Notes under the pieces: generated by a model
Told to the model about the DNA's origin: nothing
Database searches by the model: none
What the model saw: the letters and a program-made list of their open reading frames with translations, nothing else
Shown here: positions 8,386-32,792 of the stretch, one piece after another
Layout of the letters: every line of letters begins with the position of its first letter
How positions within the stretch are numbered: the stretch's first letter is position 1
Position numbers and translations under genes: made by a program
NCBI GenBank assembly: GCA_028688325.1
Contig: JAQTYI010000001.1
Coordinates: 246,994 to 300,619, forward strand
DNA length: 53,626 nucleotides
Direction: 5' to 3'
Source: Candidatus Portnoybacteria bacterium
GTDB taxonomy: Bacteria > Patescibacteriota > Minisyncoccia > Portnoybacterales > GWB1-42-6

Positions 8386-8391
8386 AAGAAA

Positions 8392-15006: not shown

Positions 15007-15510
15007 ATGAAAAAATTCACCGAAATAAAAATCAAACCGCGCCCCGAACTGGGCATCGGCCTGATAGAAATCCTGGTGGTAGTTTCAATTATCGGCTTAT
15101 CGCTGGTTTCCTTGACGGGGCTTGGCAATTTCGCGCTAAAAATCCAAACTCGCTTAAAACAGAACGCCGTTGCGGCAAACCTGGCCAGCGAAGCCCTGGA
15201 AGCGGCCCGATCCATCAGAGACGGGGGCTGGTCGGATTTGGCCAATATGACCGTTGACGCCCCTTTTCATCCGGCAAAAAACCCTTCGCTCTATCAATGG
15301 ACCATGGCGAGCGGAGAAGAAACCATAGGCGGCTTTACGCGCCGCCTGACCATCAGCAATGTTTTTCGCGACAGCGGTTTTAATATCGTTGAAAGCGGCG
15401 GGACGCAAGACGCGGGCACAAAAAAAATAACCGCCGCCGTTTCCTGGAGCTATAACGGACAAAATTTGCAAATAATCCTTGTTGACTATTTAACCAACTG
15501 GAAACCATAA
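15007..15510 (+). CDS. Pseudopilin-like protein with a divergent class III signal
   Basis: MKKFTEIKIKPRPELG|IGLIEILVVVSIIGL (Gly -1, Glu +5). The stop overlaps the next start by 1 nt. Confidence 0.6.
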   Translation: MKKFTEIKIKPRPELGIGLIEILVVVSIIGLSLVSLTGLGNFALKIQTRLKQNAVAANLASEALEAARSIRDGGWSDLANMTVDAPFHPAKNPSLYQWTMASGEETIGGFTRRLTISNVFRDSGFNIVESGGTQDAGTKKITAAVSWSYNGQNLQIILVDYLTNWKP

Positions 15511-16061: not shown

Positions 16062-16062
16062 A

Positions 16063-17814: not shown

Positions 17815-17906
17815 CGCCGGGCCCGCCTTTTTGCCTGACAATCAACCGGGTTTTGTGGTAAAATAAGATAAATAATCCGTTTGCATTATTGTTAAAACCT
17901 CAAAAG

Positions 17907-18995
17907 ATGTTCAATTTGCCGAACTCCAGCATCCACGGCTTTGGCATAGATCTAAGCGACCTGTCGATTAAAATAATCGACCTGAAAAAAAAGGGCGGGA
18001 ATTTTGAATTGGCGAGTTTTGGCCGCCAGGAAATCCCGGCCGGCCTCATTGAAAACGGCGAAATAAAAAAAGAAGAAGAGCTGATCGCGCTCATAAAAAA
18101 ATCCGTTAAAGAAGTGAAGGGAAGGGGATTAAAAAGCGATTATTGCATCGTTTCTTTGCCGGAAACCGAATCGTTCGTGCGCCTGGTGCACTTGCCGCTG
18201 ATGAAAAAAGAAGAGATGGCTGAGGCCATCAAATGGGAGATAGAAGCCAATATCCCTTTGTCGCTGCCGGAAATTTATTATGATTGGCGCGTTATTGAGA
18301 CGGCTGCCGGCGCCCGCCAAGATTATCTGGATATTTTAATCGGCGTGCTGCCTCAAAGAACCGTTGACCCGTATTTAAGCGTTCTGAAAAAAGCCGGTTT
18401 AAAGCCGTTTGTTTTTGAGATTGAGTCGCTGGCTATCGCCCGGGCGCTGGTTCCGGGAGGATGCTGCGACAAGCCCCTGCTCATTATCGATGTCGGCGCC
18501 AAAAGAACCAGTTTGGCGATTTTTTCCGGCCAAACGGTTTATTTCACCGCCAGCTTGCCGATTTCAAATTCCTCTATTGTTGAAACAATGAGTGAAAAAC
18601 TGAATATTGACCAAGAAAAGGCCAAACAAATAAAAATAGAGCAGGGCCTTGATTACAAAAATCCTGGCAGCTTAACGCTGCGGGCGTTGGCTCCGCTGAT
18701 GGACGAAACAACAAAAAAAATTAAGGATTATATTGATTACTATCAGGAACATTTGCCGGCCGCACCCAATGCTCAGAGCAACAAAATAAGCAGTGCCTTG
18801 CTTTGCGGCGGAGGGGCCAATTTTGCCGGACTGCCGGAATTTTTAACCGAAAAATTGGGCTTCCCCGTTTTCCCGGGCAATCCGTGGTCCAATGTTTTCA
18901 AGGGCGCGCCAAAAAATATTTCGGGGCTCTCTTCCGGCGAGGCCTTGAGTTTTGCCACGGCCATCGGACTGGCCATCAGGGGGTTGAAAGAATAA
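17907..18995 (+). CDS. pilM: Type IV pilus assembly protein PilM (actin-like ATPase fold)
   Basis: GIDLSDLSIKIIDL start, size and position upstream of pilN/pilO-like genes. Confidence 0.85.
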   Translation: MFNLPNSSIHGFGIDLSDLSIKIIDLKKKGGNFELASFGRQEIPAGLIENGEIKKEEELIALIKKSVKEVKGRGLKSDYCIVSLPETESFVRLVHLPLMKKEEMAEAIKWEIEANIPLSLPEIYYDWRVIETAAGARQDYLDILIGVLPQRTVDPYLSVLKKAGLKPFVFEIESLAIARALVPGGCCDKPLLIIDVGAKRTSLAIFSGQTVYFTASLPISNSSIVETMSEKLNIDQEKAKQIKIEQGLDYKNPGSLTLRALAPLMDETTKKIKDYIDYYQEHLPAAPNAQSNKISSALLCGGGANFAGLPEFLTEKLGFPVFPGNPWSNVFKGAPKNISGLSSGEALSFATAIGLAIRGLKE

Positions 18996-18997
18996 AT

Positions 18998-19549
18998 ATG
19001 ACCGAACTTAATTTGCTTCCACCGCAAGAAAAAGAGCTGCTCAACCTGGAAAAAACCCGGCGCTGGGTATCTTTTTACGGCGCCGGCTTCCTGATCGTTG
19101 TTTTGGGCTTTGCCATTCTGCTGGGTTTTGTCTGGTTTTTCATTTTGATCCAGCTTAAAAGCTACGCCCTGACAGCGCAAAACATCAAAGCAAGCTTTCA
19201 AGGACAAGGCGTTGACAAGGAAAAACAGCTTGTCGGAGAACTCAATCAATATTTGGAAAAAGTCGGCCAAATCCAAAAAAATCACAAATACTTTTCGCCG
19301 GTCCTGATCGAAATCGCCAATATCACTCCGGCCGGTGTCCGCATCGAAGGCCTGTCCATTGACGAGAAAGGCCGGGTGGAAATAACAGGATTCGCCCCCA
19401 TGAGAACGCAAGTTTTGATGCTGCAGGAGGCCCTGGTCAAATCAAAGTTATTCGCCGGAATAGAAAACCCCCTAGCCAATCTGACCAAGCAGACAAACAT
19501 CAATTTTAATTTTAAATTCGGCCTCAAGCCGGAAGAGCTCGTCAAATGA
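18998..19549 (+). CDS. pilN: PilN-like bitopic pilus alignment protein
   Basis: LNLLPPQEK motif followed by one TM helix. Start at ATG 18998, 2 nt after the pilM stop. Confidence 0.65.
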   Translation: MTELNLLPPQEKELLNLEKTRRWVSFYGAGFLIVVLGFAILLGFVWFFILIQLKSYALTAQNIKASFQGQGVDKEKQLVGELNQYLEKVGQIQKNHKYFSPVLIEIANITPAGVRIEGLSIDEKGRVEITGFAPMRTQVLMLQEALVKSKLFAGIENPLANLTKQTNINFNFKFGLKPEELVK

Positions 19550-20103
19550 TAAGCACCGTCAATTTGAGCCCCAAACAAAGGATTTATCTTACCGCCGCTT
19601 TTTGGCTGGCCGTTTTGGCGTTAGCCGTCTTTACGCTTGTCGCGCCGCTAATATCACAAATAAAAAACGACGGCCTGGAATTGGCGCAAAAAAAACAAGA
19701 AATGGAAATATTTTCCGGCGCCTGGCAAGCGCTGGGCGAGGTTAAAAACGAATATAAAAATATGCAAAACGAACTTTACGCGCTGCCCGCGCTGCTGGAC
19801 GGCAGCGAAGCCCTGAAATTCATTGTGCTGATGGAAAAATTCGCCCAGGCCACCGATAACCGCCAGGAGGTTTCGGTCGTCGCACCGGCAGCCGGTGAAA
19901 AAACACCCGCGGCGAAAAAGACGACCGACTTTCAGGTTAATCTGAGCGGCAATTTTCCCAATTTGATAAAATTTCTCATTTATCTCGAAAACGCGCCCTA
20001 CTATAACAATCTCGTCTCGCTGCAAACCCAGCGCTTGCCGGAAAAAGACGGCGCCGGCAACGGCGAAATCAACACTGTTTTAAAAATATCCGTCTACCAA
20101 TAA
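19546..20103 (+). CDS. pilO: PilO-like bitopic pilus alignment protein
   Basis: One N-terminal TM helix plus a coiled coil. ATGA start/stop overlap with pilN. Confidence 0.55.
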   Translation: MISTVNLSPKQRIYLTAAFWLAVLALAVFTLVAPLISQIKNDGLELAQKKQEMEIFSGAWQALGEVKNEYKNMQNELYALPALLDGSEALKFIVLMEKFAQATDNRQEVSVVAPAAGEKTPAAKKTTDFQVNLSGNFPNLIKFLIYLENAPYYNNLVSLQTQRLPEKDGAGNGEINTVLKISVYQ

Positions 20104-20148
20104 ATCCGCTGGCAGGAGCTATAAAAAATAATCCGGGAATATAACCGA

Positions 20149-20430
20149 ATGAACATCCCAAACGCCTTAAAATTCAAAAAAACTCGCGACTTGCTGGTTT
20201 CTCTGTTAACCCGCCATCCGGCATGGTGCCTTTGGACGCTGGCTTTTTTACTGACAATTTACGCGCTGGTGATTTTTGGCGCCTATGCCGTAAAAAATCC
20301 CAACACCGGCGCGCAAACCGGCCTGCAAATAAAAAAAGATATCTACCAGGAAGTCCTGTCGCGCCTGAAAGCGCGCGATACCAATATCCAGCAGGGGATA
20401 GGGCAAACTTATCCGGATATTTTTAAATAA
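20149..20430 (+). CDS. Small single-pass membrane protein, last gene of the pilus operon
   Basis: 93-aa ORF with one TM helix (AWCLWTLAFLLTIYALVIFGAYA), followed by a terminator. Confidence 0.5.
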   Translation: MNIPNALKFKKTRDLLVSLLTRHPAWCLWTLAFLLTIYALVIFGAYAVKNPNTGAQTGLQIKKDIYQEVLSRLKARDTNIQQGIGQTYPDIFK

Positions 20431-20443
20431 TGTTTCGCAAAAC

Positions 20444-20474
20444 AAAAAAACTCCCGCTGAAATGGGAGTTTTTT
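20444..20474. terminator. Bidirectional rho-independent terminator (pilus operon / DEAD-box gene)
   Basis: AAAAAAACTCCC-gctgaaat-GGGAGTTTTTT. Confidence 0.75.
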
Positions 20475-20486
20475 AATAAACTACAA

Positions 20487-21710
20487 TTACCTTCTGCGGC
20501 CTCGGCCGCCGCGGCGGTTCGCCCAGCCAAAGCTCATGGTGCTGCCGCGCCTTGAGTAGGTCGGCCGCATATTGGCTTGTTCAAGCTTGGAAATTTCCGT
20601 CAAATCTAATTTTTTATTCACCAGCCGCTCAATGCTGCGGATATCCTTGCCTTGGTCCGGCATAGCGAAAGAAATGGCTTTGCCGGCGTTTCCCGCCCGG
20701 GCGGTGCGGCCGATACGGTGGACATAGTCCTCGGAATTGTCCGGCAGGTCGAAATTTACCACCAGTTCAATATTGTTGACATCTATGCCCCGGGCGGCGA
20801 TATCCGTGGCCACCAGTATCCGGTATTTTTTGCTCTTAAAACCCGCCATAGCTTCGCATCGGCGGCCGAATGAAAGATTGGAATGAATTTCCGCCACTTT
20901 GTGACCGGCCCGCTCGAGTTTCCCGGCCAAAGACCCGGCGCCGTGCTTGGTGCGGGTGAAGATCAAAACCGCGCCGTTGTATTGCCTGAGTATCTTTTCC
21001 AGCTCAACATATTTTTCTTCTTTTCTCACCACGAATATTTCCTGGTCAACGAACTCGGCGGTCGTGCCGGAAGGGGCTATCTCAATGTGCACGGGCGTCG
21101 TCATATATATGGAAGCGAGTTTCAGAATCTCATTAGGCATGGTCGCGGAAAAAAGCACGGTCTGGCGTCCCTGCGGAACGCGTTTCATTATTTCTTTCAG
21201 TTGCGGAGCAAAACCCATATCCAGCATCCTGTCGGCTTCATCCAGCACCAAAATTTTAACATCGTCCAATTTTACCGAACCTCTTTTCAAATGGTCTATC
21301 AAACGGCCCGGCGTCGCCACAATAATATGCGGGTTCCTTTTCAATCCTTGCAGCTGCCGCCCCATCGCTTCGCCGCCGATCAAGGAGACGGTCCGCAACC
21401 CCAATTTTTCACCCAGCTTTACCAGATTTTCATCCACCTGCAAAGCCAGCTCGCGGGTCGGCAAAATGACCAAACCGCAGCCCTTATTGAGCATCAGCCG
21501 CTCCAGCATCGGGATACCAAAAGCGAAGGTCTTGCCCGTGCCGGTCTGCGCTACGCCAATCAGGTCTTGCCCCGCCAAGACAATCGGGATGGACTTGGCT
21601 TGAATAGGCGTGGGGACTTCCAACTTCAAGCTTTCCAATACCCTTAAAATGGACGCGTTAACGCCCAAACCTTTAAAACCATTTTCGATTTGTTTAGTTT
21701 GTTCTAACAT
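20487..21710 (-). CDS. DEAD-box ATP-dependent RNA helicase with an RGG tail
   Basis: Q-motif PTPIQ, AQTGTGKT, DEAD, SAT, HRIGRTARAG and C-terminal RRGGRGRRR. Confidence 0.95.
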   Translation of the reverse strand: MLEQTKQIENGFKGLGVNASILRVLESLKLEVPTPIQAKSIPIVLAGQDLIGVAQTGTGKTFAFGIPMLERLMLNKGCGLVILPTRELALQVDENLVKLGEKLGLRTVSLIGGEAMGRQLQGLKRNPHIIVATPGRLIDHLKRGSVKLDDVKILVLDEADRMLDMGFAPQLKEIMKRVPQGRQTVLFSATMPNEILKLASIYMTTPVHIEIAPSGTTAEFVDQEIFVVRKEEKYVELEKILRQYNGAVLIFTRTKHGAGSLAGKLERAGHKVAEIHSNLSFGRRCEAMAGFKSKKYRILVATDIAARGIDVNNIELVVNFDLPDNSEDYVHRIGRTARAGNAGKAISFAMPDQGKDIRSIERLVNKKLDLTEISKLEQANMRPTYSRRGSTMSFGWANRRGGRGRRR

Positions 21711-21789
21711 AAAATAATAAAAAAATAAGCGACCCGTTTCTGCGGATCACTTTCAATGACACCCGAGAGGCGAATCTATTAACTGTTTA

Positions 21790-21818
21790 AGTATAGCACT
21801 AATAGATTGGGATGTCAA
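21790..21818 (-). promoter_or_regulatory. Sigma70-like promoter (minus strand TTGACA-N17-TATACT) for the DEAD-box helicase
   Basis: The reverse complement reads tTTGACAtcccaatctattagtgcTATACTt, implying a ~70-nt leader. Confidence 0.5.
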
Positions 21819-21836
21819 ATATTGTTTGCCGAAGGG

Positions 21837-21909
21837 TGCACCCGGCAGGGATCGAACCTGCGACCTTCTCGTTAAGAGCGAGCAGCTCTACCAACTGAGC
21901 TACGGGTGC
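21837..21909 (-). tRNA. tRNA-Lys (CTT)
   Basis: The reverse complement gives GCACCCG...CGGGTGC+A, D-arm AGCTCAGTTGGTAGAGC, anticodon loop CTCTTAA and T-arm GCAGG-TTCGATC-CCTGC. Confidence 0.9.
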
Positions 21910-21961
21910 AAAATATAATTTTTAACTATAAACTACGAACTAAAAACTAACAACTATTTTG

Positions 21962-22033
21962 TCTCCCCGATAGGAATCGAACCTATATAAGCAGCTTAGA
22001 AGGCTACTGCTCTATCCATTGAGCTACGGGGAG
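21962..22033 (-). tRNA. tRNA-Arg (TCT)
   Basis: The reverse complement gives CTCCCCG...CGGGGAG+A, D-arm AGCTCAATGGATAGAGC, anticodon stem-loop GTAGC-CTTCTAA-GCTGC and T-arm ATAGG-TTCGATT-CCTAT. Confidence 0.85.
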
Positions 22034-22050
22034 AGATTCTGCTCCTCCCC

Positions 22051-22431
22051 TTAATTTAAGGGGAGGTTGGGAGGGGTTATGTGTTCCAAAATTTTTAAAA
22101 TCACTCCATCCGTATTTTTCAAAATATCGTTATCCCAGAATCTTAATATATTTATATTAAATTGCTCTAAATAGCAAGTGCGTTTTGTGTCATGTTCTTT
22201 TTGCGATATATCGTGCTGACTCCCATCAGCTTCAATGCCCAATCTTATTGCCGGACAATAAAAATCCAGGATATATGGGCCGACGCTGTATTGGCGGAAA
22301 AACTTTACTCCGGCTAATTGCCTATTTCGTAATTTTGACCAAAGCTTTCGTTCAGCATCGGTTGATGCTTTCCTTAAATCACGCCGGTGTATTTTAACAG
22401 AAGATTTGTTAAAAACAAATTTTTTGTTCAT
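22051..22431 (-). CDS. DUF559 (Vsr-like) endonuclease domain protein
   Basis: The pattern FFRQYSVGPYILDFYCPAIRLGIEADGSQH...LRFWDNDI is typical of DUF559. It is AT-rich and bracketed by G/C-rich hairpins at 22040-22075 and 22440-22480. Confidence 0.85.
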   Translation of the reverse strand: MNKKFVFNKSSVKIHRRDLRKASTDAERKLWSKLRNRQLAGVKFFRQYSVGPYILDFYCPAIRLGIEADGSQHDISQKEHDTKRTCYLEQFNINILRFWDNDILKNTDGVILKILEHITPPNLPLN

Positions 22432-22485
22432 TTTCTAACTCCCCCTAACCCCCTCTTAATCTAAGAGGGGGAATTAGATCAATCG

Positions 22486-23466
22486 TTATCCTCTTTTCTT
22501 CCCGTGAAAATTCTTGTGTATCTCGCGCAATTGCTTGTCGGTGATATGAGTGTATATCTGAGTGGTGGTGATAGAGGAGTGACCCAGCATCGCTTGCACG
22601 GACCTGATATCCGCGCCGCTCATTAAAAGATCAGTGGCAAAAGAGTGGCGCATAGTATGCGGGGTGACGCGGCGAGTAATGCCGGCTTTGATGGCATACT
22701 GTTTGATTATCCTTTGCACGGAACGCGGTGTCAAGCGCATCTCCGACAATCGGACCTTCTGGGCCTTGCCGGTCTTAACCTGGATCGCGTCCACCTTGCC
22801 CAGCGACCCCTTGCCTTTGGGCGTACGCACAAACAGCGCCGGCTCGATATCCTTGCGCTTGGCCAGATAAGTTTTTACGGCTGCTTTGGCGGTATCGGAA
22901 ATAAAAACAACCCTGATCTTTTCGCCTTTACCGCGCACAGAAAATTCGCCTTTATCCAGGTTAAAGCTGTCTCGGTTCAATCTGCAAATTTCCGAAACGC
23001 GCAGGCCGGTGGAAAAAAGCATTTCCAGCAACGCCCGGTCGCGCAGGGAACGAAGCGAGTCCCCGTCGGGGGAGCGCAGAAGCCGCGCTAGTTCGTCGCC
23101 CTCCAGAAATTCCACTTCGCGCGGCGCCTGCCTGGCCAGCTCAATCTTGTCGGCCGCCATGGATTTGACATCCCGTTTGGCCAGATATTTCAAAAAATTG
23201 CGCAGGGCGATAATATGATAATTCTGGGTTATCTTTTTCAGGCCCTTGCCCTTCGAAGCTTTAGCGGAGGAGGGTTCCAGGCGATTCAGGTGTAGCCGGT
23301 AGTCGCGGATGAGGTCCGCGTTGATGTCATCCGCGCTTTTTATCTTGGCAAACGCCAAAAACCGCCGCAAATAATGGCCGTAATTTTCCGTGGTCTTAAT
23401 TGACCGGCCGCGTTCAACTTCCAAATAAGCCAGATAATCCGCTAATAATTTTTCTATGTCCTGCAT
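22486..23466 (-). CDS. xerC: Site-specific tyrosine recombinase, XerC/XerD family
   Basis: N-terminal SAM-like domain (YLAYLEVERGRS), catalytic region R...HTMRHSFATDLL...GHSSITTTQIYTH. Start at ATG 23466. Confidence 0.9.
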   Translation of the reverse strand: MQDIEKLLADYLAYLEVERGRSIKTTENYGHYLRRFLAFAKIKSADDINADLIRDYRLHLNRLEPSSAKASKGKGLKKITQNYHIIALRNFLKYLAKRDVKSMAADKIELARQAPREVEFLEGDELARLLRSPDGDSLRSLRDRALLEMLFSTGLRVSEICRLNRDSFNLDKGEFSVRGKGEKIRVVFISDTAKAAVKTYLAKRKDIEPALFVRTPKGKGSLGKVDAIQVKTGKAQKVRLSEMRLTPRSVQRIIKQYAIKAGITRRVTPHTMRHSFATDLLMSGADIRSVQAMLGHSSITTTQIYTHITDKQLREIHKNFHGKKRG

Positions 23467-23835
23467 TTTTTTGCCGAGATTTTGCGATGTTTGAAAAATG
23501 TCGCAACAATCTCGGCGCATATTGCGATACAATTTTAACTGCGTTGTAATATGTTCATTTTACGACATAAAAATCTTCCGCGCAATCCCAAAATACTCCG
23601 GGCAGTTACCCCAGCCAGAAATTCAACCATGCTCCACAATAAACCAAGCGGGAAAGCGATTTCGCCTGCTCGCCTCGCTAAAGCGAGAGCAAAGCGGGTG
23701 GCTTTGTTCTAAATAATCCGGATTTCAAGGCAAACTTCCAGCGGGGCATTGCATTTTTTCCCAATCCGTGTTATCTTCAAACCAATAAAGATAACCGATC
23801 ATTTTTGGAACTTCGCCCCAGAAATATCCATATCA

Positions 23836-23969
23836 ATGCCAGGTAGTGAAAATTCGGTAGTTTATCCGAATCATAAATATACTTGGCAAATCAATAAAAT
23901 AGAAAGAAATAGCGGCTTAAATTTACTTTATCATTTGAATTAAATACAGCCGAATTTCTACTACCTGGA
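23836..23969 (+). promoter_or_regulatory. Start-codon-abutting inverted-repeat leader cassette, copy 1 (rpsO)
   Basis: ATGCCAGGTAGTGAAAATTCGG ... CCGAATTTCTACTACCTGGA|ATG. The 19-bp arms at 23839-23857 and 23950-23968 are complementary. The same architecture occurs at 30582-30714 and 34061-34191. Confidence 0.6.
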
Positions 23970-24236
23970 ATGTTAAAAAAAGCCAAGAAAAGCAAAATTA
24001 TAGAAGAATTCAAGGCCCACGATACCGATACGGGCTCGCCCGAAGTGCAGACGGCCATCTTGACCGAGCAGATAAAAAAACTGACGGGCCATTTGAAAAA
24101 ACACGCCAAAGACAATCATTCCCGTTTCGGCTTGCTGAAAATGGTCGCCAAACGCAAAAAGCTTATCGACTATTTGTCCAAAGAAGACCCTGAGAGGCAT
24201 AAAAAACTTTTGAAAAAGCTGGACTTGAAAAAATAA
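23970..24236 (+). CDS. rpsO: 30S ribosomal protein S15
   Basis: 88 aa. The pattern DTGSPEVQTAILTEQIKKLTGHLKKHAKDNHSRFGLLKMVAKRKKLIDYL is typical of S15. Confidence 0.97.
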   Translation: MLKKAKKSKIIEEFKAHDTDTGSPEVQTAILTEQIKKLTGHLKKHAKDNHSRFGLLKMVAKRKKLIDYLSKEDPERHKKLLKKLDLKK

Positions 24237-24323
24237 TTTATTTCCCCCTTTTCGTAAAGGGGGATTAAGGGGGATTTAAATCCTCCCTAACCCTCCTTTA
24301 CCAAAAGGAGGGTATTTAATAAA

Positions 24324-24833
24324 ATGAGCGTCATCAAACACAGAGATCAACGAGTAGGGGTTTTTATCGATGTTGCCAATTTATACCACTCGGCTAAAAA
24401 TCTCTACCGCGCCAAAGTCAATTTCAAAGAAGTCCTGAAAACCGCCATCGCCGGCCGCCATCTTATCCGGGCCATGGCTTATTCGGTTCGCACGGAAGGC
24501 GGAGAAGAGCAGGCGTTTGTTGAGGCGCTAACAAAATCCGGCATTGAAGTGCGGCTGAAGGACTTGCAGATTTTTCCCGGCGGAATGAAGAAGGGCGACT
24601 GGGATGTGGGCTTGGCCATAGACGCAATAAAGCTCGGCGCCAAGTTGGATGCGATAGTGCTGGTGACGGGGGACGGCGACTTTGCGCCGCTCGTTGAATT
24701 CTTAAAAGTGAATTTCGGCAGCCAGGTGGAAGTCATCGGTTTTGGCCGCAGCACTTCCGGGCTCCTAAAAGAAGTGGCTGACGATTTTACTGATTTGGGA
24801 GACAACATTAAAAAGTACCTGATAAATCAATAA
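24324..24833 (+). CDS. NYN-domain (LabA/DUF88-like, PIN-fold) protein
   Basis: VGVFIDVANLYHS ... VLVTGDGDFAPLVEFLK acidic motifs typical of NYN ribonuclease-like domains. Confidence 0.8.
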   Translation: MSVIKHRDQRVGVFIDVANLYHSAKNLYRAKVNFKEVLKTAIAGRHLIRAMAYSVRTEGGEEQAFVEALTKSGIEVRLKDLQIFPGGMKKGDWDVGLAIDAIKLGAKLDAIVLVTGDGDFAPLVEFLKVNFGSQVEVIGFGRSTSGLLKEVADDFTDLGDNIKKYLINQ

Positions 24834-25000
24834 CGAGGAGAAGAAAGTTTTTGGCGGGCGACGAGCGGGAAGGGAAGAAGAAAAAAATACGCAATTATTC
24901 AATTTTCAATTGCTTAATCAGCCGGTTGTTGATTGCGAATTGTTTTCTTTTACTCTTTCGCCGAATCTTCCGCCAAGGCGAATTTTTCTCTCAAAGAAAA

Positions 25001-27124
25001 ATGAACAAGAAGGTTTTTTCCCGCGAATTTGCGGGACGCACGCTCAGCGTGGAAGTGGGGGAGCTGGCCCAGCAAGCCAATGGCTCTGTTTTACTGCATT
25101 ATGGCGATTCAACGGTGCTGGCCACGGCCGTTATAAATCCCAAGGCGAAAGAAAAATGCGATTACTTGCCTCTCTCCGTCGAATATGAAGAAAAACTTTA
25201 CGCGGCCGGAAAAATCAAAGGCAGCCGCTTTATCAAGCGCGAAGGCAAAGCGCAGGACAGCGCTGTTTTAAAAGGCCGCTTCATCGACCGGACGCTGCGG
25301 CCCCGCTTTAACAATGCCATCCGGAACGAAATCCAGGTGGTGGTTACCGTGCTTTCCTACGACCGAACCAACGATACGGATGTTTTGGGTATCGTAGCCG
25401 CCTCCCTCGCTTTATCAATCTCGGATATTCCCTGGGACGGCCCGGTATCGGGAGTAAGGGTCGGACGGAAAGACGGCCAAATGTTAATCAACCCGACCTT
25501 TGATGAGCGCGCCGGCAGCGACCTGGAAGTGGTAGTGGCCGGCACCGCCAAAAAAATAAATATGATGGAGGCCGGAGCCAAAGAGATGCCGGAAGAGATT
25601 ATGCTGGAAGCGATCAGCGCAGGGCAAAAGGCCTACGAAGAGCTGATTGCGTTTCAAAACGAGATTATCGCGCAGCTCAAGCCGGAAAAAAGGGTTTTGG
25701 AGATCAAAAACACTCCGGCTGATTTTGAAACCAAGGTGATAAAATTTTTGGAAAACAAACTTGAAGAAGCGATTTATGTCAAAGAAAAACACACTCGCAT
25801 GAACCGCTTGGGACAACTGCACAACGATCTGGTTCAATTCGTTAAAGAAAGCGAAACTGAAAACATTGACGAGAAGGTTTTGGCGGCCGGTTCTTTGTTG
25901 GAAAAAAAGATAGATGAAACCGTGCACGCCAATATCCTGAAAAACGACAAGCGGCCGGACGGGCGTAAAAACAACGAAGTCCGGGAATTGTCTTGCCGCG
26001 CCGGAGTGCTGGCGCGCACCCACGGCTCCGCCATTTTCAACCGCGGCAACACTCAAGCTCTCTCAACCGTGACTCTGGGCTCGCCGGGAGACAAACAAAC
26101 CATTGACGGGCTGGATGAAGAATATGAAAAAAGATTCATCCATCATTATAATTTCCCGCCGTTTTCCGTAGGCGAGACAGGCGGTTTTCGCGGCCCCGGC
26201 CGGAGAGAAATAGGGCACGGCGCGCTGGCTGAACGAGTGCTGACCCAAATTATTCCGGCTGAAGCCGACTTTCCTTATACTATTCGCGTTGTCTCGGAAA
26301 TTTTATCATCCAACGGCTCCTCCTCCATGGCCTCGGTTTGCGGCTCTTCCATGGCGCTGATGGACGCGGGCGTACCGATAAAAGCGCCGGCGGCCGGCAT
26401 TGCCATGGGCTTAATGATGGACGATAAAGGAAATTATAAAGTTTTGACGGATATCCAAGGCCCCGAAGACCATCACGGCGATATGGATTGCAAAGTGGCC
26501 GGCACAGCCAACGGAGTTTGCGGCCTGCAGATGGATGTAAAGATTGAAGGCGTTGACCTGAATATCTTGCGCGACACGCTGGCTCAAGCCAAAGAAGCGC
26601 GCCTGCATATTCTAAAAAGCATGAACGAGGCCATTTCCGCCCACCGCGCCAACTTGTCTCCATTCGCTCCGAGAATTGTCACCATCCAAATAAATCCCGA
26701 TAAGATTCGCGATGTCATCGGCCCTGGCGGCAAAGTAATCAATGAAATAACCGCCCAAACCGGCGTCAAAATCGACATTGAGGACTCAGGCCTTATTTTT
26801 GTCACCTCGGCGGACGAGCCCTCTTCGCAAAAAGCCGTCGAGTGGATAAAAAATCTCACCCATGAAGTAACGGCTGGCGAAGAGTACCAGGGCAGGGTCA
26901 CGCGCATTATAAATTTCGGCGCATTCGTGGAAATTTTGCCGGGACAGGAAGGACTTGTCCACATTTCCGAACTTGCCCCCTTCCGCGTGGAGCGAGTTGA
27001 TGATATAGTAAAAGTGGGAGACAAAGTTACGGTAAAAGTGAAGGCCATCGACGACATGGGGCGCATCAACCTCACTATGCGCAACTCCCAAAAGAACAAC
27101 TTTCCCGAATCCTCAAGCAAATAA
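25001..27124 (+). CDS. pnp: Polyribonucleotide nucleotidyltransferase (PNPase)
   Basis: Two RNase PH-like domains, then KH (GPGGKVINEI) and S1 (GRVTRIINFGAFVEILPGQEGLVHISE). Start at ATG 25001. Confidence 0.97.
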   Translation: MNKKVFSREFAGRTLSVEVGELAQQANGSVLLHYGDSTVLATAVINPKAKEKCDYLPLSVEYEEKLYAAGKIKGSRFIKREGKAQDSAVLKGRFIDRTLRPRFNNAIRNEIQVVVTVLSYDRTNDTDVLGIVAASLALSISDIPWDGPVSGVRVGRKDGQMLINPTFDERAGSDLEVVVAGTAKKINMMEAGAKEMPEEIMLEAISAGQKAYEELIAFQNEIIAQLKPEKRVLEIKNTPADFETKVIKFLENKLEEAIYVKEKHTRMNRLGQLHNDLVQFVKESETENIDEKVLAAGSLLEKKIDETVHANILKNDKRPDGRKNNEVRELSCRAGVLARTHGSAIFNRGNTQALSTVTLGSPGDKQTIDGLDEEYEKRFIHHYNFPPFSVGETGGFRGPGRREIGHGALAERVLTQIIPAEADFPYTIRVVSEILSSNGSSSMASVCGSSMALMDAGVPIKAPAAGIAMGLMMDDKGNYKVLTDIQGPEDHHGDMDCKVAGTANGVCGLQMDVKIEGVDLNILRDTLAQAKEARLHILKSMNEAISAHRANLSPFAPRIVTIQINPDKIRDVIGPGGKVINEITAQTGVKIDIEDSGLIFVTSADEPSSQKAVEWIKNLTHEVTAGEEYQGRVTRIINFGAFVEILPGQEGLVHISELAPFRVERVDDIVKVGDKVTVKVKAIDDMGRINLTMRNSQKNNFPESSSK

Positions 27125-27147
27125 ATTCGTTTTATCCTGGAGGGACC

Positions 27148-28536
27148 ATGGATATAAAACCGACTCGACCAACTCTCGCTCAAGAAGCCGGCGCCGCCCT
27201 TGACCAAAAAGGCAGCCCGTCTTCCGGTGCGCAACCTTTTATGTCGCAATTTGTCATCAGGACAATGGCCGGCGACTTAAAAAATCATCCCCAATCCGTT
27301 TCCGGATCGGCATCGGGTTCTTCGATTTCGGAGATCCCGCCCGCGCCAAAACCGCCCGCGCCGGCAATTACCACACAGCCGCAACCGGCATTAAAACCTC
27401 TTGCAGCGACTCCGGCCGCGCAACAGCCCGCATTGAAAATGCCGGCCCAAACAATAGCCGAGGAGCCCGGCGCACCCGCCGGCCTTCCTGTAATACCCTT
27501 AACGAAAGAACCGGAATTATTTTTTGAGACCAGACCCGAACCCCCAAAAATACCGATCCCGGCTCCGCCCGCGCCGGTTGAAAAACCGCTTGCGTCGGCT
27601 CAGTTAATTCCATCGACTCCGGTCGCGCCATCAGCACCGGCTAAAATTTCAACTGCGCCCCCCAAAATACCGGCCGGATTAACATTTGAAGCACCCGAAG
27701 AAAAAGAGCTGGATGTCAAAAAAATCTTAACGATCGGACTGTCGTCAGTCGCTGTTTTGGCGCTGATCATCGGCGGAATTTGGTTTTTATTGAAAAGCCC
27801 CGCCCAACAACCGGCCCAAATATCGCAAACGCCAACCCCAAGCCCAAGCCAGACAATCGCTCCACCTGCCGCCGAAACGCCATCGGCCATATTTGAAACC
27901 GACGCGCAAAAAATATTTTTATTAAAAGACAACCAAGAAAAAGCCGACTTGCAAGATGCCTTGCTTCAGATGACCGAGACGGAAGAGCCGGTCGGCGACT
28001 TTATCCACCTTGCGTTCAAAAATAGCCGGGGCGAATTTTTATCTTTGGATAAAGTAGCGCTGCTGATTGGATCCGATTTTTTTGACCTGCCGACTCAAAC
28101 GAGCGCCGGCAACCTGAAAAAACAGCTAAATTTAGCCCAATCATCCTTTTTCGCATACTCGCAAAGCTCAAACAAAAACAGCGATTCTCCTTTTAATCCT
28201 TCACTTGCCAATCTCGGTCGGCTGGGGCTGACTGTAGCCGCAAGCGCCGCTTCCGCGGATGAACTTGGCAGGTCATTGAAAGACCTGGAGCAGATGATGC
28301 TCAACGGCCTCGGCATCTTGCTGCCAAGCGCCAAAAATAATTTTCCTGCCAATCCGGTTTTTTCTGACAACATCCACAGCGGCGTAGCCATCCGTTATAT
28401 CAACCTGCCCAATTCCGACCTGTCTTTGGACTACGCCATTTTAAACAATAAACTTATTTTCGCCACCTCGAAAGAAAGCATGTTCGCCATCATCGACCGG
28501 ATATTATCGGCAAACGAACAATCAAATCAACCCTAA
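27148..28536 (+). CDS. Membrane-anchored protein with a Pro/Ala-rich cytoplasmic N-terminus and an extracytoplasmic domain (possibly DUF3352-like)
   Basis: GGAGGG SD before the ATG. PAPKPPAP-type low-complexity region, one TM helix (ILTIGLSSVAVLALIIGGIWFLL), and a C-terminal ...NNKLIFATSKESMFAIIDRIL resembling the C-terminus of the 29495-30178 product. Confidence 0.55.
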   Translation: MDIKPTRPTLAQEAGAALDQKGSPSSGAQPFMSQFVIRTMAGDLKNHPQSVSGSASGSSISEIPPAPKPPAPAITTQPQPALKPLAATPAAQQPALKMPAQTIAEEPGAPAGLPVIPLTKEPELFFETRPEPPKIPIPAPPAPVEKPLASAQLIPSTPVAPSAPAKISTAPPKIPAGLTFEAPEEKELDVKKILTIGLSSVAVLALIIGGIWFLLKSPAQQPAQISQTPTPSPSQTIAPPAAETPSAIFETDAQKIFLLKDNQEKADLQDALLQMTETEEPVGDFIHLAFKNSRGEFLSLDKVALLIGSDFFDLPTQTSAGNLKKQLNLAQSSFFAYSQSSNKNSDSPFNPSLANLGRLGLTVAASAASADELGRSLKDLEQMMLNGLGILLPSAKNNFPANPVFSDNIHSGVAIRYINLPNSDLSLDYAILNNKLIFATSKESMFAIIDRILSANEQSNQP

Positions 28537-28545
28537 TTTTAACCG

Positions 28546-29484
28546 ATGGACAGCCGAGCCAAAGCCATTCTGGCGCCATTGATCTACTACGACCTGCTTG
28601 ACCGGCCTCTCACGGCCCTTGAAGCGTTTAAGTATCTCCGGGCCGAAACGCCGGAGATATCTTTTTTTAATTTTCGGCGGGAGCTGAAAAACTCAAAAGA
28701 ACTGCCGAGTTTCATCGGACAAAAAAACGGTCTTTGTTTTTTGACCGGCCGGCAAGAGATCGTAAATATTCGCGAAAAGCGGCTAAAGCTGGCTCAGCTT
28801 AAATGGAAAAAACTGAAAGCTGCCGGCAAATATTTGTCCTTGGTGCCATTTCTGCGCTTGGCCGCGATCACCGGTTCCCTCACCAGCTACAACACAAAAG
28901 AACAAAGCGATTTCGATTTGTTGATTATCTTTAAAAACAAGCGGCTGTGGCTCGGCCGAATTCTGCTGACGGGCCTTATCGGACTGCTGGGTAAGCGCCG
29001 CCACGGAAATCTGACTCAAGACCGGATCTGCCTGAACTGCTATCTGACGGAAGAAGATCTGGAAATTACCGAACAAGCCAAAAAACATAATTTCCATTCC
29101 GCCCAAGAATACGGACGGCTCACCCCGATCCTGGAAATTAAAAAAGGGGCTCACGAAGATTTCACCCGGGCCAATGGTTGGCTGGCTGATTTTTTAAAAA
29201 ATTATCCCTGGCCGGCTGAACGCAGCGCAAAAAAAATAAAACCGCCGATGCTTTTTTCCTGGCTGCGCCAGGCGCTGGAATGGCTTCTTGGCGGCACAAT
29301 GGGGGACCGGCTGGAAAAAATTGCCGGCCAATGGCAGAATGAACGCATCAATAAAAAAAGGCGAGGCGAGCGGTCAGACCGAGATCAAGTGTTTGTCAGC
29401 AACAGCTGCTTAATGTTCCACCCGCAATCAAAAAGTGATAAGCTAATGAAAGAATTCGATAAAAAAATGCGGCTATTCAATTAA
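28546..29484 (+). CDS. Hypothetical protein with a Pol-beta-type nucleotidyltransferase-like motif
   Basis: GSLTSYNTKEQSDFDLLII fits the G[SG]-x(9-13)-D-x-[DE] pattern. Otherwise unrecognised. Confidence 0.45.
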   Translation: MDSRAKAILAPLIYYDLLDRPLTALEAFKYLRAETPEISFFNFRRELKNSKELPSFIGQKNGLCFLTGRQEIVNIREKRLKLAQLKWKKLKAAGKYLSLVPFLRLAAITGSLTSYNTKEQSDFDLLIIFKNKRLWLGRILLTGLIGLLGKRRHGNLTQDRICLNCYLTEEDLEITEQAKKHNFHSAQEYGRLTPILEIKKGAHEDFTRANGWLADFLKNYPWPAERSAKKIKPPMLFSWLRQALEWLLGGTMGDRLEKIAGQWQNERINKKRRGERSDRDQVFVSNSCLMFHPQSKSDKLMKEFDKKMRLFN

Positions 29485-29494
29485 AAAACTGCTT

Positions 29495-30178
29495 ATGCAA
29501 CCGACTCAAATAAAAATAAACAAAGCGCCGAACGACCGGAACGGAGAAACAAAAAACATTTTAAATTTAAACGATTCTCCCGCCAAGCCGCGGCCCAGCC
29601 AAGAGACAAAAAAATATCTGTGGATTTTTATCGCCTTGATCATTCTTGAAGGCGCCGCGATAATCTGGTTGTCTCTGGCTAATCCCGTCTCGCCGTATTT
29701 TAAACTCCTGCCGCAAAATTTAGTCGCTTCTTCTTATTTTAACCAATCGTCTCTTCTGGCGCTTTTAAAAAACGGGGGGGGCGGCTGGCCCCTGCTCGAC
29801 CAAGGAAATGGCGCCTTGCGCTCTTTGTTGAACAAGATAAACATAGAACAACCGGAACGGTTATCGGAGCTGTTTGAGGACCGGATGGCGCTGGCCGTCC
29901 TGCCGCAAGATACCGATAAAAATCCGACTTGGCTGATCTTGGCCGCCATCAAGGCCTCGCCCGACATCTTTTCACAAACGCAAAATGCGGCCGAGCAGGC
30001 CTTGAAACAGAATTATGACCTGACCGTCGAACCGTACCGGCAAATAAAAATCGTCCGGGTCAAGCCCTTGAACCAGAACCAAAACAGTATATTTTACGCG
30101 CAAACAAAAAACTATTTTATTTTAAGCGACAATAACGAAACCTTAAAAGAAGCGCTGGATAAAATCATCGGTCGATAG
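29495..30178 (+). CDS. Membrane-anchored hypothetical protein (possibly DUF3352-like), architectural paralog of 27148-28536
   Basis: One TM helix (YLWIFIALIILEGAAIIWLSL) and a C-terminal NYFILSDNNETLKEALDKII. Confidence 0.5.
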   Translation: MQPTQIKINKAPNDRNGETKNILNLNDSPAKPRPSQETKKYLWIFIALIILEGAAIIWLSLANPVSPYFKLLPQNLVASSYFNQSSLLALLKNGGGGWPLLDQGNGALRSLLNKINIEQPERLSELFEDRMALAVLPQDTDKNPTWLILAAIKASPDIFSQTQNAAEQALKQNYDLTVEPYRQIKIVRVKPLNQNQNSIFYAQTKNYFILSDNNETLKEALDKIIGR

Positions 30179-30217
30179 GGGAGCCGCCGAATGTGGAGAA
30201 TGTGTGCATAACAGTTC

Positions 30218-30246
30218 TTGACCGATTTTTACGGAATAGTTAAAAT
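30218..30246 (+). promoter_or_regulatory. Sigma70-like promoter (TTGACC-N17-TAAAAT) in a gene-free region
   Basis: cTTGACCgatttttacggaatagtTAAAATaac. Confidence 0.45.
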
Positions 30247-30252
30247 AACAAT

Positions 30253-30538
30253 GTTCCTTGAAGCTGGCTACCGCAGTTATAATAATTGATTTGTTCTTTT
30301 AACGCCCAACGGGGCATAGCTGGCCGAGGAATATTCGTTTTCCTTTTTGTAGCTTATATAGTCCGGCGGGCCGCATATAAAAAAGGCCTAATGGCTTTCT
30401 GTTTTTAGATAAGGTACAAAGGGGCTGAGGGGCGTTAGCCCCATTAAATCATATTTTTCGGGCCTTAACGCCCCTCAAACAGTTTATCCCTCAGCGCACA
30501 GTATGAAGAAAAAACCACCCGGAATGGGGTGTTTTTTG
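30253..30538 (+). ncRNA. Candidate ~286-nt structured ncRNA of unknown class, or a long structured 3' UTR
   Basis: Bounded by the promoter above and by the terminator CACCC-ggaat-GGGTG+T6 (30513-30538). It has no credible ORF. It contains an 11-bp perfect helix GAGGGGCGTTA/TAACGCCCCTC extended by CTGTTT/AAACAG, and a mutually exclusive GGGGCT/AGCCCC hairpin. Confidence 0.3.
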
Positions 30539-30581
30539 TTTGCGCCCTTGCCTTATCCGCCTTTTTTACCATATACTATAT

Positions 30582-30714
30582 ATGCCGGGTAGTGAAAATT
30601 TGACAGGTTATATTTTGCAAAAATAACTTGCCAAGCTCTCACAACTTAGGCAGAATATAAGCATATTAATCCACTTATTATATTAATTATTCGGTCAAAT
30701 TTCTACTACCCGGT
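30582..30714 (+). promoter_or_regulatory. Start-codon-abutting inverted-repeat leader cassette, copy 2 (dksA-like gene)
   Basis: ATGCCGGGTAGTGAAAATTTGAC ... GTCAAATTTCTACTACCCGGT|ATG. Arms at 30585-30604 and 30694-30713. A TTGCCT-N18-TATACT promoter ends 4 nt upstream (30572-30577). Confidence 0.6.
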
Positions 30715-31080
30715 ATGGATAAGAAAACTATGGATAGATTCAAAAAGATATTGGAAGAGCGCAAAGCCAAGCTGGAAAACGAGTTGGCTTCTTTCGCCAA
30801 GAAAGACGAGAAGGTGAAGGGGGACTACGACACCCAATTCCCTGATTTTGGCACGGCTCAAAGCTCGGACGAAGAGGCATTTGAAGTGGCGGCTTATGAC
30901 AGCGCCCTGCCGGTTGAATACGCGCTGGAACTGCGCCTGGCAGACATCAACAAGGCCCTGGAAAAGATAAAAAATGGCACCTACGGCCAATGCGAAAACT
31001 GCGCCGGCGAGATGGACCCGCGACGACTGGAGGCCATGCCGGAAGCCCGCCTCTGCCTTAAATGCCGCAAAGGTAAATAA
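30715..31080 (+). CDS. DksA/TraR family C4-type zinc-finger protein
   Basis: Coiled-coil N-terminus plus CENCAGEMDPRRLEAMPEARLCLKC (CxxC-x17-CxxC). Confidence 0.9.
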   Translation: MDKKTMDRFKKILEERKAKLENELASFAKKDEKVKGDYDTQFPDFGTAQSSDEEAFEVAAYDSALPVEYALELRLADINKALEKIKNGTYGQCENCAGEMDPRRLEAMPEARLCLKCRKGK

Positions 31081-31107
31081 TTATGATTCGCCTTATTTTT
31101 ATTCTTT

Positions 31108-31136
31108 GACCATCTCCCCGGGTGGTCTTTTTGTTT
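31108..31136 (+). terminator. Rho-independent terminator after the dksA-like gene
   Basis: GACCA-tctccccggg-TGGTC followed by TTTTTGTTTT. Confidence 0.55.
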
Positions 31137-31175
31137 TAAAGCGCTTAAACATTAATAAACATTGATACTTTTCCT

Positions 31176-32717
31176 ATGCCGAGTCCCGCAAAAGTTTTCT
31201 CAGCCGCCATGCTGGGGCTCCATTGTCTGCCCATAGAGGTTGAGGTAGATATGTCGCCCGGCCTTTATAATTTCCAGATAGTCGGGTTGCCGGATGCCGC
31301 AGTTAACGAATCCAAGGAACGGGTCTCTTCGGCCATAAAAAACTCCGGCGCTTCGCCGCCCCACCATACCAACCGCCGCGTCATAGTCAATTTGGCCCCG
31401 GCCGACATAAAGAAAGAAGGGCCGGCCTATGATCTGCCTATAGCGGTGGCTTTTCTGCTGGCCTCTGACCAGCTTTTAGCCAGCGGGGTGGCCGATAAGA
31501 TATTCGTGGGCGAGCTATCACTTGAAGGCAAGCTCAGGCCCGTCAGCGGGGCTTTGCCAATCGCCATAATGGCGCGGGACAAAGGATTTAAAGAGGTATT
31601 TGTGCCCAAAGCCAACGCAGCCGAGGCAGCTCTGATAAAAGAGATAACTGTTTTCGGCATAGATTCCCTTGAACAGCTGTTTCTGCACCTGGAACAAAAA
31701 GAAACTCTTGAGCCGCAGACGCCGACCGAACTGGATTTTATTTCCGACGCATTTGAGTCAAGCGCGGATTTTGCCTATATCCGCGGCCAGGAACACGCCA
31801 AGCGCGCGCTGGAAATAGCTGCGGCCGGACACCACAATATCTTGATGAGCGGACCTCCCGGAACCGGCAAAACTTTGCTGGCCAGAGCATTGCCCGCAAT
31901 ACTACCCAATTTATCTTTTGAAGAAGCGCTGGAAACCACCAAAATATTCAGTATCGCCGGCCGCCTAAGCCCTGAAAAACCCATTCTCACCCGGCGCCCA
32001 TTCCGCAGCCCCCACCACACCTCTTCGGCAGTCGCTTTGGTCGGCGGCGGCAATCATCCAAAACCCGGAGAAATAACTCTGGCGCACCGAGGAGTGCTGT
32101 TTCTGGATGAATTACCGGAATTTCACCGCGATGTTTTGGAAGCGTTGCGCCAACCCTTGGAAGACGGCGTCATAACTGTTTCCCGCGCTTTGGGCGCCCT
32201 GGAATTTCCCGCGCAATTTATGCTCGTAGCAGCCATGAATCCCTGCCCTTGCGGGCACGCCACCAATCCCGACAAGCAGTGCGTCTGCTCGCCCGCGCAA
32301 GTCAGTAAATACAAGCGCCGGATTTCCGGGCCGCTGATAGACAGGATTGATCTGCATATAGATGTGCCGGCCATAAAATACGACAAGTTGGCCGCGGAAA
32401 AAATGGGGGAGGATTCGCAAGCCGTGCGCGAACGAGTGCAAGCGGCCAGAGCGCGCCAGCAAGAGCGGTTTAAAAACGACAAAATAAAGACCAATTCCGA
32501 GATGAACTTGCAACTGATGAAAAAACACTGCCAACTGGACTCGGCGGGCCAGGAAATATTAAAAACCGCGGCGCAGAATCTTCATCTTTCCGCCCGCTCA
32601 TACCATCGCATTTTAAAGCTGTCCCGCACCATCGCAGATCTTGTTGGCGCACCGAATATCCAATCCCGGCACCTGGCTGAAGCATTGCAATACCGGCCGA
32701 AAGAAGATGCATTCTAA
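31176..32717 (+). CDS. YifB/ComM family Mg-chelatase-like AAA+ ATPase
   Basis: N-terminal Lon-protease-like (ChlI) domain, Walker A GPPGTGKT, Walker B LFLDELPEF, a CPCG zinc-ribbon-like insert and a C-terminal Mg_chelatase_C helix bundle. Confidence 0.95.
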   Translation: MPSPAKVFSAAMLGLHCLPIEVEVDMSPGLYNFQIVGLPDAAVNESKERVSSAIKNSGASPPHHTNRRVIVNLAPADIKKEGPAYDLPIAVAFLLASDQLLASGVADKIFVGELSLEGKLRPVSGALPIAIMARDKGFKEVFVPKANAAEAALIKEITVFGIDSLEQLFLHLEQKETLEPQTPTELDFISDAFESSADFAYIRGQEHAKRALEIAAAGHHNILMSGPPGTGKTLLARALPAILPNLSFEEALETTKIFSIAGRLSPEKPILTRRPFRSPHHTSSAVALVGGGNHPKPGEITLAHRGVLFLDELPEFHRDVLEALRQPLEDGVITVSRALGALEFPAQFMLVAAMNPCPCGHATNPDKQCVCSPAQVSKYKRRISGPLIDRIDLHIDVPAIKYDKLAAEKMGEDSQAVRERVQAARARQQERFKNDKIKTNSEMNLQLMKKHCQLDSAGQEILKTAAQNLHLSARSYHRILKLSRTIADLVGAPNIQSRHLAEALQYRPKEDAF

Positions 32718-32733
32718 ACAAATACATTTAATC

Positions 32734-32775
32734 AAAAAGCTCTTGTTCCGCGACATGGAACAAGGGCTTTTTTTC
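32734..32775. terminator. Bidirectional rho-independent terminator between convergent genes
   Basis: AAAAAGCTCTTGTTCC-gcgacat-GGAACAAGGGCTTTTTTT. Confidence 0.75.
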
Positions 32776-32792
32776 TTGTTTTGTTTTAATCG

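Follow-up and report, generated by a model that had tools for sequence, protein, structure and literature searches.

We report that a short feature lying immediately upstream of a dksA-like gene in a 53,626-nt stretch of Candidatus Portnoybacteria DNA (GenBank assembly GCA_028688325.1, contig JAQTYI010000001.1; the whole stretch is called the window below) is probably a non-autonomous copy (MITE, for miniature inverted-repeat transposable element) of a mobile-element family from Patescibacteria. The element is 129 bp long (window positions 30585–30713), with a 20-bp imperfect inverted repeat at its ends and a direct TATG repeat outside them (Table 1). It combines terminal inverted repeats, a target-site duplication (TSD) with a fixed length of 4 bp, a small non-coding body that occurs in many copies, and presence/absence polymorphism. 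An earlier note on this DNA had described the same stretch as a leader cassette. The coordinates that it gave for the arms, the ATG and the promoter match the sequence; a cassette dedicated to these genes is contradicted by the TSDs, by empty sites in relatives and by hundreds of copies before unrelated genes.

Table 1 Element copies, their parts and host-gene features in the window (window coordinates)
Feature	Position	Strand	Remarks
Upstream TATG, first TSD copy	30581..30584	+	Holds the original start codon, 30582-30584; matches the downstream TATG
Left terminal inverted repeat, 5′ strand of the 20-bp stem	30585..30604	+	CCGGGTAGTGAAAATTTGAC
Interior, non-coding, AT-rich, 89 nt	30605..30693	+	Sequence variable among copies, length near-constant
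Right terminal inverted repeat, 3′ strand of the stem	30694..30713	+	GTCAAATTTCTACTACCCGG
Downstream TATG, second TSD copy	30714..30717	+	Holds the working start codon, 30715-30717
Host gene, 121-aa DksA/TraR-type zinc-finger protein	30715..31080	+	Pfam PF01258, E = 1.3e-5; orthologues in L114-L117
Vestigial 14-codon open reading frame, MPGSENLTGYILQK	30582..30626	+	In-frame reading of the left inverted repeat gives codons 2-8
Host gene promoter, TTGCCT-N18-TATACT	30548..30577	+	Promoter scan; conserved in L114 and L115
Further copy, before rpsO (ATG at 23970)	23839..23968	+	AATG flanks at 23835-23838 and 23969-23972
Third copy, decayed, before uvrD/pcrA (ATG at 34192)	34063/4..34190	+	Left end minus one base; right arm degenerate

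First, the repeated tetranucleotide has the properties of a TSD throughout the family. A scan of reference genomes (one genome per species) with a two-arm pattern found more than 112 loci among the matches listed, nearly all in Patescibacteria (the CPR) and distributed over Parcubacteria, Saccharibacteria, Berkelbacteria, Gottesman-, Moran-, Portnoy- and Yanofskybacteria; the parcubacterial genome GW2011_GWB1_40_14 alone accounted for about 20 loci among the matches listed. Two loci (L036 and L110) appeared to be chance matches, and flank statistics for short copies were based on 113 real, non-identical copies. These copies are mostly 127–140 bp long, end in the 20-bp terminal inverted repeat CCNGGTAGTGAAAATTCGAC...GTCGAATTTCTACTACCNGG (the terminal pair is also written CCNGGTAGT...ACTACCNGG) and contain only short, unconserved open reading frames (ORFs) in interiors whose sequence is likewise not conserved. 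The 4 nt on the left and right were identical in 68 of the 113 short copies, compared with 1 of 113 for the next tetramer outward, which served as control. TATG/TATG was the most frequent pair (44 short copies), and the tetramers that were the same left and right were of at least 15 kinds, including CATA, TATA, CCTC, TGGA, AAAG, CGTG, TACG and TTGA; 14 of the identical flanks of short copies were non-ATG cases. Because non-ATG tetramers are duplicated as well, the repeat comes from insertion and does not reflect any requirement of function for two ATGs. In the literature searchable without subscription we found neither this family described, nor Patescibacteria MITEs, nor a GIY-YIG transposase.

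The scans also returned unusual arrangements. More than one copy, in tandem or nested, occupies the same start codon in L096 (~5700–6300), L054, L071, L080 and L103 and at the right flanks of L154/L170; in one example the flank of an element runs directly into the next arm (...ACCTGG TATG CCAGGTAG...), which fits repeated insertion into a duplicated TATG. Locus L203 is a 296-bp 'long' copy made of four tandem 75-nt units, and L088 (reverse strand, ~3530–3600) carries a 61-nt mini copy with CAAG on both sides.

Second, orthologous sites without the element exist in relatives. Syntenic DNA was fetched through the neighbouring YifB gene and the sites were then compared. The dksA-like site is filled in L114 (YifB 91% identical) by the same insertion, which is ~9% diverged with about ten interior differences, and is empty in L115 and L117; the empty site of L115 reads ...TTGCTT-N18-TATACTgtaagtaATGGATAAA. 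At uvrD, the element stands between two ATGs in the window and the site is empty in L114 (TATACT-N7-ATGATTTTAAAAGG; full reading TATACTtaatcgtATGATTTTAAAAGG), and L117 has a copy at a DUF3352-like gene that is element-free in the window. Gain and loss of the element therefore took place in the DNA itself. The TTGCCT-N18-TATACT promoter that the earlier note had placed just upstream was also found by promoter scan, and in the form TTGCYT-N18-TATACT it is kept both in the filled L114 and in the empty L115. Its presence in an empty relative indicates that it is the host gene's own promoter and older than the insertion. In L115 the −10 box lies 7 nt before the ATG, which is the geometry of a leaderless gene. 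Together, these comparisons show that the dksA-like gene was of leaderless type when it received the window copy, and that this took place before the split from L114.

RNA made from this promoter would contain both arms and probably the upstream AUG. Only 4 nt separate the −10 box from the ATG in the window copy, so transcription could start at the G of this codon and not at its A. The two arms pair over 20 positions, comprising 18 Watson–Crick pairs, a G·U at position 10 and an A·C at position 11, and a small hairpin (AGGTTAT...ATAACTT) lies in the interior directly 3′ of the left arm. For RNA starting at 30582, the predicted folding energy is −40.5 kcal/mol, compared with −22.8 ± 3.2 for shuffled sequences (z = −5.5; 0 of 200 shuffles were as good).

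Such a fold invites a regulatory explanation, in which a host-evolved cis-acting leader RNA (riboswitch, attenuator or thermosensor) would control dksA, rpsO and uvrD through the helix and a leader peptide. The very stable helix, the compensatory changes in the arms and the inner hairpin, and the constant location next to a start codon would all be accounted for. We nevertheless regard this explanation as very improbable, as the downstream genes are functionally unlinked, the same genes lack the element in close relatives, TSDs occur also at non-ATG sites, the interior is unconserved and relatives of the element carry a nuclease gene. Rfam at the gathering score detected only tRNAs in the window, and an E-value search added generic miRNA-precursor and hairpin models far below threshold. 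Across the family, the host genes are unrelated housekeeping genes (for S6, S9, S11, S15, GreA, Ndk, TrmD, enolase, FolD, HIT, UvrD and DksA-like proteins), which rules out a ligand- or pathway-specific leader. The 14-codon ORF MPGSENLTGYILQK is indeed present where the earlier note had read a leaderless upstream ORF, but it is not an evolved leader peptide: its MPGSEN(S/L)T is the inverted repeat read in frame, and since the long relatives described below continue this reading into their nuclease, it is the leftover start of a nuclease frame. The empty sites and the duplications have thus already largely refuted a leader-RNA origin.

We then compared insertion sites with gene starts. The right flank is NATG and opens a long ORF in the forward direction in 66 copies; the left flank is CAT, the start of a gene on the other strand, in 14; 11 copies lie in CCTC, the reverse complement of the GAGG Shine–Dalgarno site of a gene on the other strand; and several split a TATAAT box located 6–7 nt 5′ of an ATG. 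With the background YATR frequency taken from 0.9 Mb of Patescibacteria DNA around the collected loci, a start codon was overlapped by 80 of the 86 YATR-flanked copies (93%) compared with 11.5% of non-coding YATR sites, an approximately 8-fold preference (P ~1e-67). The base at −1 was T at 88% of insertion sites versus 48% of start codons overall. Flank counts show the preferred target to be TATG, and in practice TATG holding the start codon of a gene. Leaderless genes as the specific target were considered and set aside, as a −10 box 4–9 nt upstream was found at 27% of element-bearing and 20% of other starts, which is no clear preference. After insertion, the ATG of the gene is intact and a second ATG upstream adjoins the original promoter and initiation signals of the gene.

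Two observations touch on these start sites. Among 378 long ORF starts (loci L002–L117), ~20% have a strong −10 hexamer ending 4–9 nt (peak 6–7) before the ATG, and GGAG or GAGG occurs upstream in only ~11% of them; with −10 boxes near the ATG frequent and Shine–Dalgarno sequences rare, leaderless starts appear to be common in these Patescibacteria genomes. In addition, nearly all of the CCTC-flanked copies (L011, L027, L048, L060, L067, L084, L097, L100, L101, L108 and L113) have TTTGAY inner arms, and they may represent a subfamily with a different target preference.

Insertion between a gene and its promoter could also be tolerated if the element were a mobile promoter cassette whose own outward promoter, based on the TTGACA of the arm or on an internal extended −10 such as cTGGTATAAT, drives the downstream gene. 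The arm of the window copy does contain TTGACA, at 30600–30605 and not at 30599–30604 as the earlier note had it, and a promoter-like TTGCCA-N17-CAGAAT inside the copy (30628–30656) is conserved in L114. Moreover, a YTGGYA motif is found in the gene sense in 19 forward-ATG copies and antisense in 4, and bases resembling TATAAT often come next after TGG in the hairpin subfamily. The statistics argue otherwise. The best position-weight-matrix scores were 5.73 in the gene sense, 5.57 on the reverse strand and 5.88 in shuffled interiors; −10-like hexamers have no preferred position; the arm carries TTCGAC, not TTTGAC, in 73% of copies, leaving TTGACA to about a quarter of them; and the long copies have no room for a promoter. 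An internal promoter built on the arm, which the earlier note had offered as an alternative, is not borne out by these numbers, and we consider a promoter cassette unlikely.

Last, the ends of the element are maintained as a pair. The family stem is exactly 20 bp long; 87% of cells pair over 54 distinct arm pairs, and pairing collapses at position 21. Compensatory changes occur at stem positions 1, 3, 6 and 15–20, and the covariation score was 0.244 compared with 0.106 in shuffles (0 of 500 reached it) and at most 0.061 in slid controls. Copies within one genome differ at the covarying positions, which indicates that pairing itself is maintained, be it in RNA, in single-stranded DNA or in cruciform DNA. 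A hand tally of wobble intermediates (27 G·T versus 17 A·C) does not decide whether selection acts on gene-strand RNA. Position 10 is G·T in 113 of 115 copies, although the search pattern allowed G–C; the A·C at position 11 was imposed by the scan pattern, yet it is present in elements that were reached through protein. With respect to the nuclease ORF or interior, the central G·T/A·C mismatch is found in both orders. Most elements are of type A, and in type B (L138, L162, L173, L176, L177, L183, L214 and L220/L222) the ORF is still co-directional with the host gene.

The covariation implies that a nucleic acid folds, and it is one of the points that would suit an HUH-type element moving as a single strand, like IS200/IS605 or REP/RAYT, for which the flanking TATG would be a recognition tetranucleotide and not a duplication. 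One subfamily has hairpins near both ends (~20 nt and ~9 nt from the termini), and GTAG motifs are present in the arms. At least 15 tetramers, each identical on both sides, point instead to duplication and not to a fixed cleavage site, long terminal inverted repeats are foreign to the IS200/IS605 and REP/RAYT families, and the linked ORF encodes a GIY-YIG protein and not a Y1 HUH protein. This origin is the least probable of those that we considered.

The linked ORF was found in longer relatives with the same ends. The first of these, at L089, is 306 bp long and has the same arms around an interior that consists of one 86-codon ORF. A metagenome scan for arms 260–290 nt apart yielded 98 loci, corresponding to 81 distinct elements of 292–320 bp, and 64 of the 81 have an intact ORF of 82–97 amino acids (typically ~88). 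The product matches the Pfam GIY-YIG family (PF01541, E = 7.5e-17) and, more weakly, T5orf172 and MUG113, with conserved motifs of catalytic type; no transposase family was matched in the Pfam search. Among proteins of solved structure, stand-alone UPF0213 proteins are nearest to it and SLX1 comes next. The median dN/dS of 0.12 indicates purifying selection. Flanks of the long copies (TATG/TATG in 37, and TGGA/TGGA, CATA/CATA and others) were identical in 47 of 81 cases, compared with none for control tetramers, and elements reached through the protein, as opposed to the DNA pattern, had the same arms and flanks.

A co-directional host ORF begins within 8 nt downstream of 46 of the 64 intact long elements. 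In 30 of 47 testable cases the nuclease ORF shares its reading frame with the host ATG beside it (one third expected, P = 1.8e-5), so that reading from the duplicated host codon gives MPGSENSTAI-MFYYVYVLQS..., and four long elements have no start codon other than the host ATG. In nearly all in-frame copies the nuclease stop codon extends over the base with which the right arm begins, 19–20 nt before the end of the element and ~20 nt before the host ATG. Database homologues are often called at 98–102 amino acids, that is, with an N-terminal extension, and are annotated as "GIY-YIG nuclease family protein", "endonuclease" or "excinuclease ABC subunit C".

With a GIY-YIG protein as sole ORF, the known classes of insertion sequence (IS; DDE, DEDD, HUH, and serine or tyrosine recombinase) were ruled out. 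A classical GIY-YIG homing endonuclease gene shares the GIY-YIG domain with the long relatives only, and it is contradicted by the hundreds of host genes, the inverted repeats and the TSDs. The partner element therefore belongs neither to a known IS class nor to the classical homing endonuclease genes, and the chance is substantial that the parent element represents a new transposon class. No kilobase-sized autonomous copy was found in the 0.9 Mb of collected loci, which contain only the ~0.3-kb form. Short-copy interiors have almost no homology to the nuclease ORF; the short copy at L030 retains a AAAGAATATTTTTAT stretch coding for KEYFY. Grouping of interiors by BLAST gave no orientation, as the interiors are too diverged.

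Other small GIY-YIG genes were seen in or next to tRNA genes (L109:3300-3750, L057:5700-6170, L111:4290-4760 and L045:4730-5200). They have no inverted repeats and their products are 36–45% identical to the element nuclease. In L109 and L057 the 5′ half of the tRNA is duplicated on both sides, which looks like a second type of mobile GIY-YIG cassette in Patescibacteria.

The architecture of the long and short copies allows us to propose how the family may move and be tolerated. We suggest that the GIY-YIG nuclease moves both long and short copies, and that the long element would depend on signals of its host to start transcription and translation. The host gene would then be translated by termination–reinitiation ~20 nt past the nuclease stop, or would be unmasked when a translating ribosome melts the stem. 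In short copies, the leftover MPGSEN... ORF and the stem may keep this relay role, or the stem may simply be cut by RNase III. In silico, opening of the region from −15 to +15 around the gene AUG of the dksA-like copy (copy 2) costs 16.3 kcal/mol, and 5.1 kcal/mol when the first 33 nt are held single-stranded. In its full form, the proposal is that of a new class of prokaryotic transposon, the smallest autonomous one (~310 bp), which has a bare ~88-aa GIY-YIG nuclease as its sole product, targets initiator codons, expresses the nuclease from a host promoter and ATG, and restores the host gene by reinitiation at the duplicated ATG, with the window MITE still relaying ribosomes. We put this forward tentatively, as a reading of the genomes that is plausible but falls somewhat short of probable.

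Host expression could also be explained by processing. If the insert behaves as an intervening-sequence-like hairpin, RNase III would cut the 20-bp stem and leave an mRNA with a short leader, with the central G·U/A·C setting the site of cleavage. This explanation can stand together with the identity of the feature as a mobile element, and it competes only with the ribosome-relay account of host expression. The stem of exactly 20 bp, with a central tandem mismatch in every copy in either order, is suggestive in this respect. Patescibacteria have kept few RNases, of which RNase III is one (PMC12641178), and the rRNA genes of these bacteria carry non-intron insertions, some coding for GIY-YIG proteins, of which short ones lie at known RNase III intervening-sequence sites (PMC11270868). 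On the other side, six checked long copies with non-ATG flanks (four TGGA, one CCCA and one CGAA/GAAA) gave no Rfam matches that would place them in rRNA or tRNA genes, and cutting the stem of a long copy would part the nuclease ORF from the host start codon that it apparently uses. We consider RNase III processing a serious but rather unlikely account of host expression.

Several points weigh against our main explanation, the mobile element as well as the relay. The in silico unmasking effect is absent for copies 1 and 3, the other two in the window, so folding support for a relay is weak, and the ORF of 17 of the 47 testable long copies does not share the frame of the host ATG. We know of no precedent for an 88-residue GIY-YIG protein acting as a transposase, nor, to our knowledge, do characterized GIY-YIG homing enzymes make a 4-nt staggered cut in their target. 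No target motif beyond TATG was found, leaving the start-codon preference without further explanation in sequence. The search patterns fixed left stem positions 7–16 and most of right positions 1–16, so the invariance of those arm positions is partly circular. Neither a long copy nor a nuclease gene was found in the 53.6-kb window. Finally, the three window copies share only 72% column identity with each other; because they are mutually diverged and copy 2 is common to the relative L114, the insertions in the window are old.

The window contains exactly three element copies in 53.6 kb. The architecture that the earlier note had recognized at 23836–23969 is the same as that of the dksA-like copy, and the decayed copy before uvrD adds a third. 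The 13-mer GGTAGTGAAAATT, with up to two mismatches, occurs six times in the window compared with 1.6 expected (0 of 100 shuffles reached six). In the source genome, the three copies are old and probably immobile.

The window has other repeats as well. A G+C-rich overlapping palindrome (CCCCCTTTTCGTAAAGGGGG...) at 24244–24311, directly 3′ of rpsO, is probably the rpsO terminator. A separate family of short repeats (...CAGGGCCTGGATCCCGGGTCAAGCCCGGGATGACAA...) is present at 1986–2052, 36954–37053 and 53409–53443, its first copy lying just 5′ of a gene start at 2058. An exact direct repeat of 263 nt occupies 49663–49925 and 50581–50843, 918 bp apart, and a 102-nt repeat with 98% identity occupies 2620–2721 and 4754–4855, the latter copy being internally palindromic (arms 4754–4797 and 4811–4854).

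Among known systems, the Correia (NEMIS) elements of Neisseria are closest in behaviour. These are MITEs of ~100–150 bp with ~26-bp terminal inverted repeats and many copies near gene starts; they are co-transcribed with genes, form a long RNA hairpin that is reportedly cut by RNase III, and are reported to affect expression. They duplicate TA and are not placed exactly on start codons, and we know of no established autonomous partner with the same repeats. The Patescibacteria element differs in its 4-bp TATG TSD, its exact start-codon position and its GIY-YIG-coding partner. With I-TevI and the Seg and Mob proteins of phage T4 it shares a selfish character and a GIY-YIG nuclease as sole gene. 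GIY-YIG homing enzymes, however, have a separate DNA-binding domain, recognize a single long cognate site and enter the same locus through repair, with neither inverted repeats nor duplications, whereas the Patescibacteria nuclease is a bare ~88-aa domain in an element with inverted repeats, TSDs and hundreds of loci.

Inserts that ribosomes tolerate offer further parallels. Insertions of Rickettsia palindromic elements (RPE) lie in frame inside coding regions, and the protein includes their translation. Like them, the Patescibacteria element is a short palindromic mobile repeat of a reduced genome that ribosomes can read and that is tolerated in expressed genes; unlike them, it duplicates the start codon, and stop codons separate it from the host protein. 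The byps of Magnusiomyces mitochondria and the insert of T4 gene 60 lie inside ORFs and are skipped by the elongating ribosome. As in byps, matching codons flank an insert with a hairpin between them, the insert stays in the mRNA and the host protein is still made, but here the repeated codon is the initiator; non-coding targets are duplicated too, which points to an origin by insertion, and bypassing is not needed as an explanation. The GIY-YIG ORFs reported in Patescibacteria rRNA insertions are neither intronic nor homing-like (PMC11270868). As with the RNase III-processed intervening sequences of 23S rRNA, these are stem-forming inserts that spread horizontally, tolerated there because the stem is cut out; the copies described here lie at the starts of protein genes.

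If the proposed mechanism is correct, the enzymes known to move transposons of prokaryotes would come to include GIY-YIG nucleases, here in an element much smaller than IS200, and a selfish element would be seen to borrow the promoter and start codon of its host and to repair the damage by duplicating the ATG. This would bear on leaderless and Shine–Dalgarno-less initiation in Patescibacteria, which are not yet genetically tractable. In each Patescibacteria genome, a 130-nt hairpin leader would precede dozens of housekeeping genes, and it could be mistaken for regulatory RNA by gene callers and in screens for RNA motifs; proteins of 98–102 amino acids called "excinuclease ABC subunit C", "endonuclease" or "GIY-YIG nuclease family protein" would be element genes fused to a host ATG. 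Should the inference fail, the feature in the window would still be explained as an old MITE insertion, for which a regulatory role is unnecessary.

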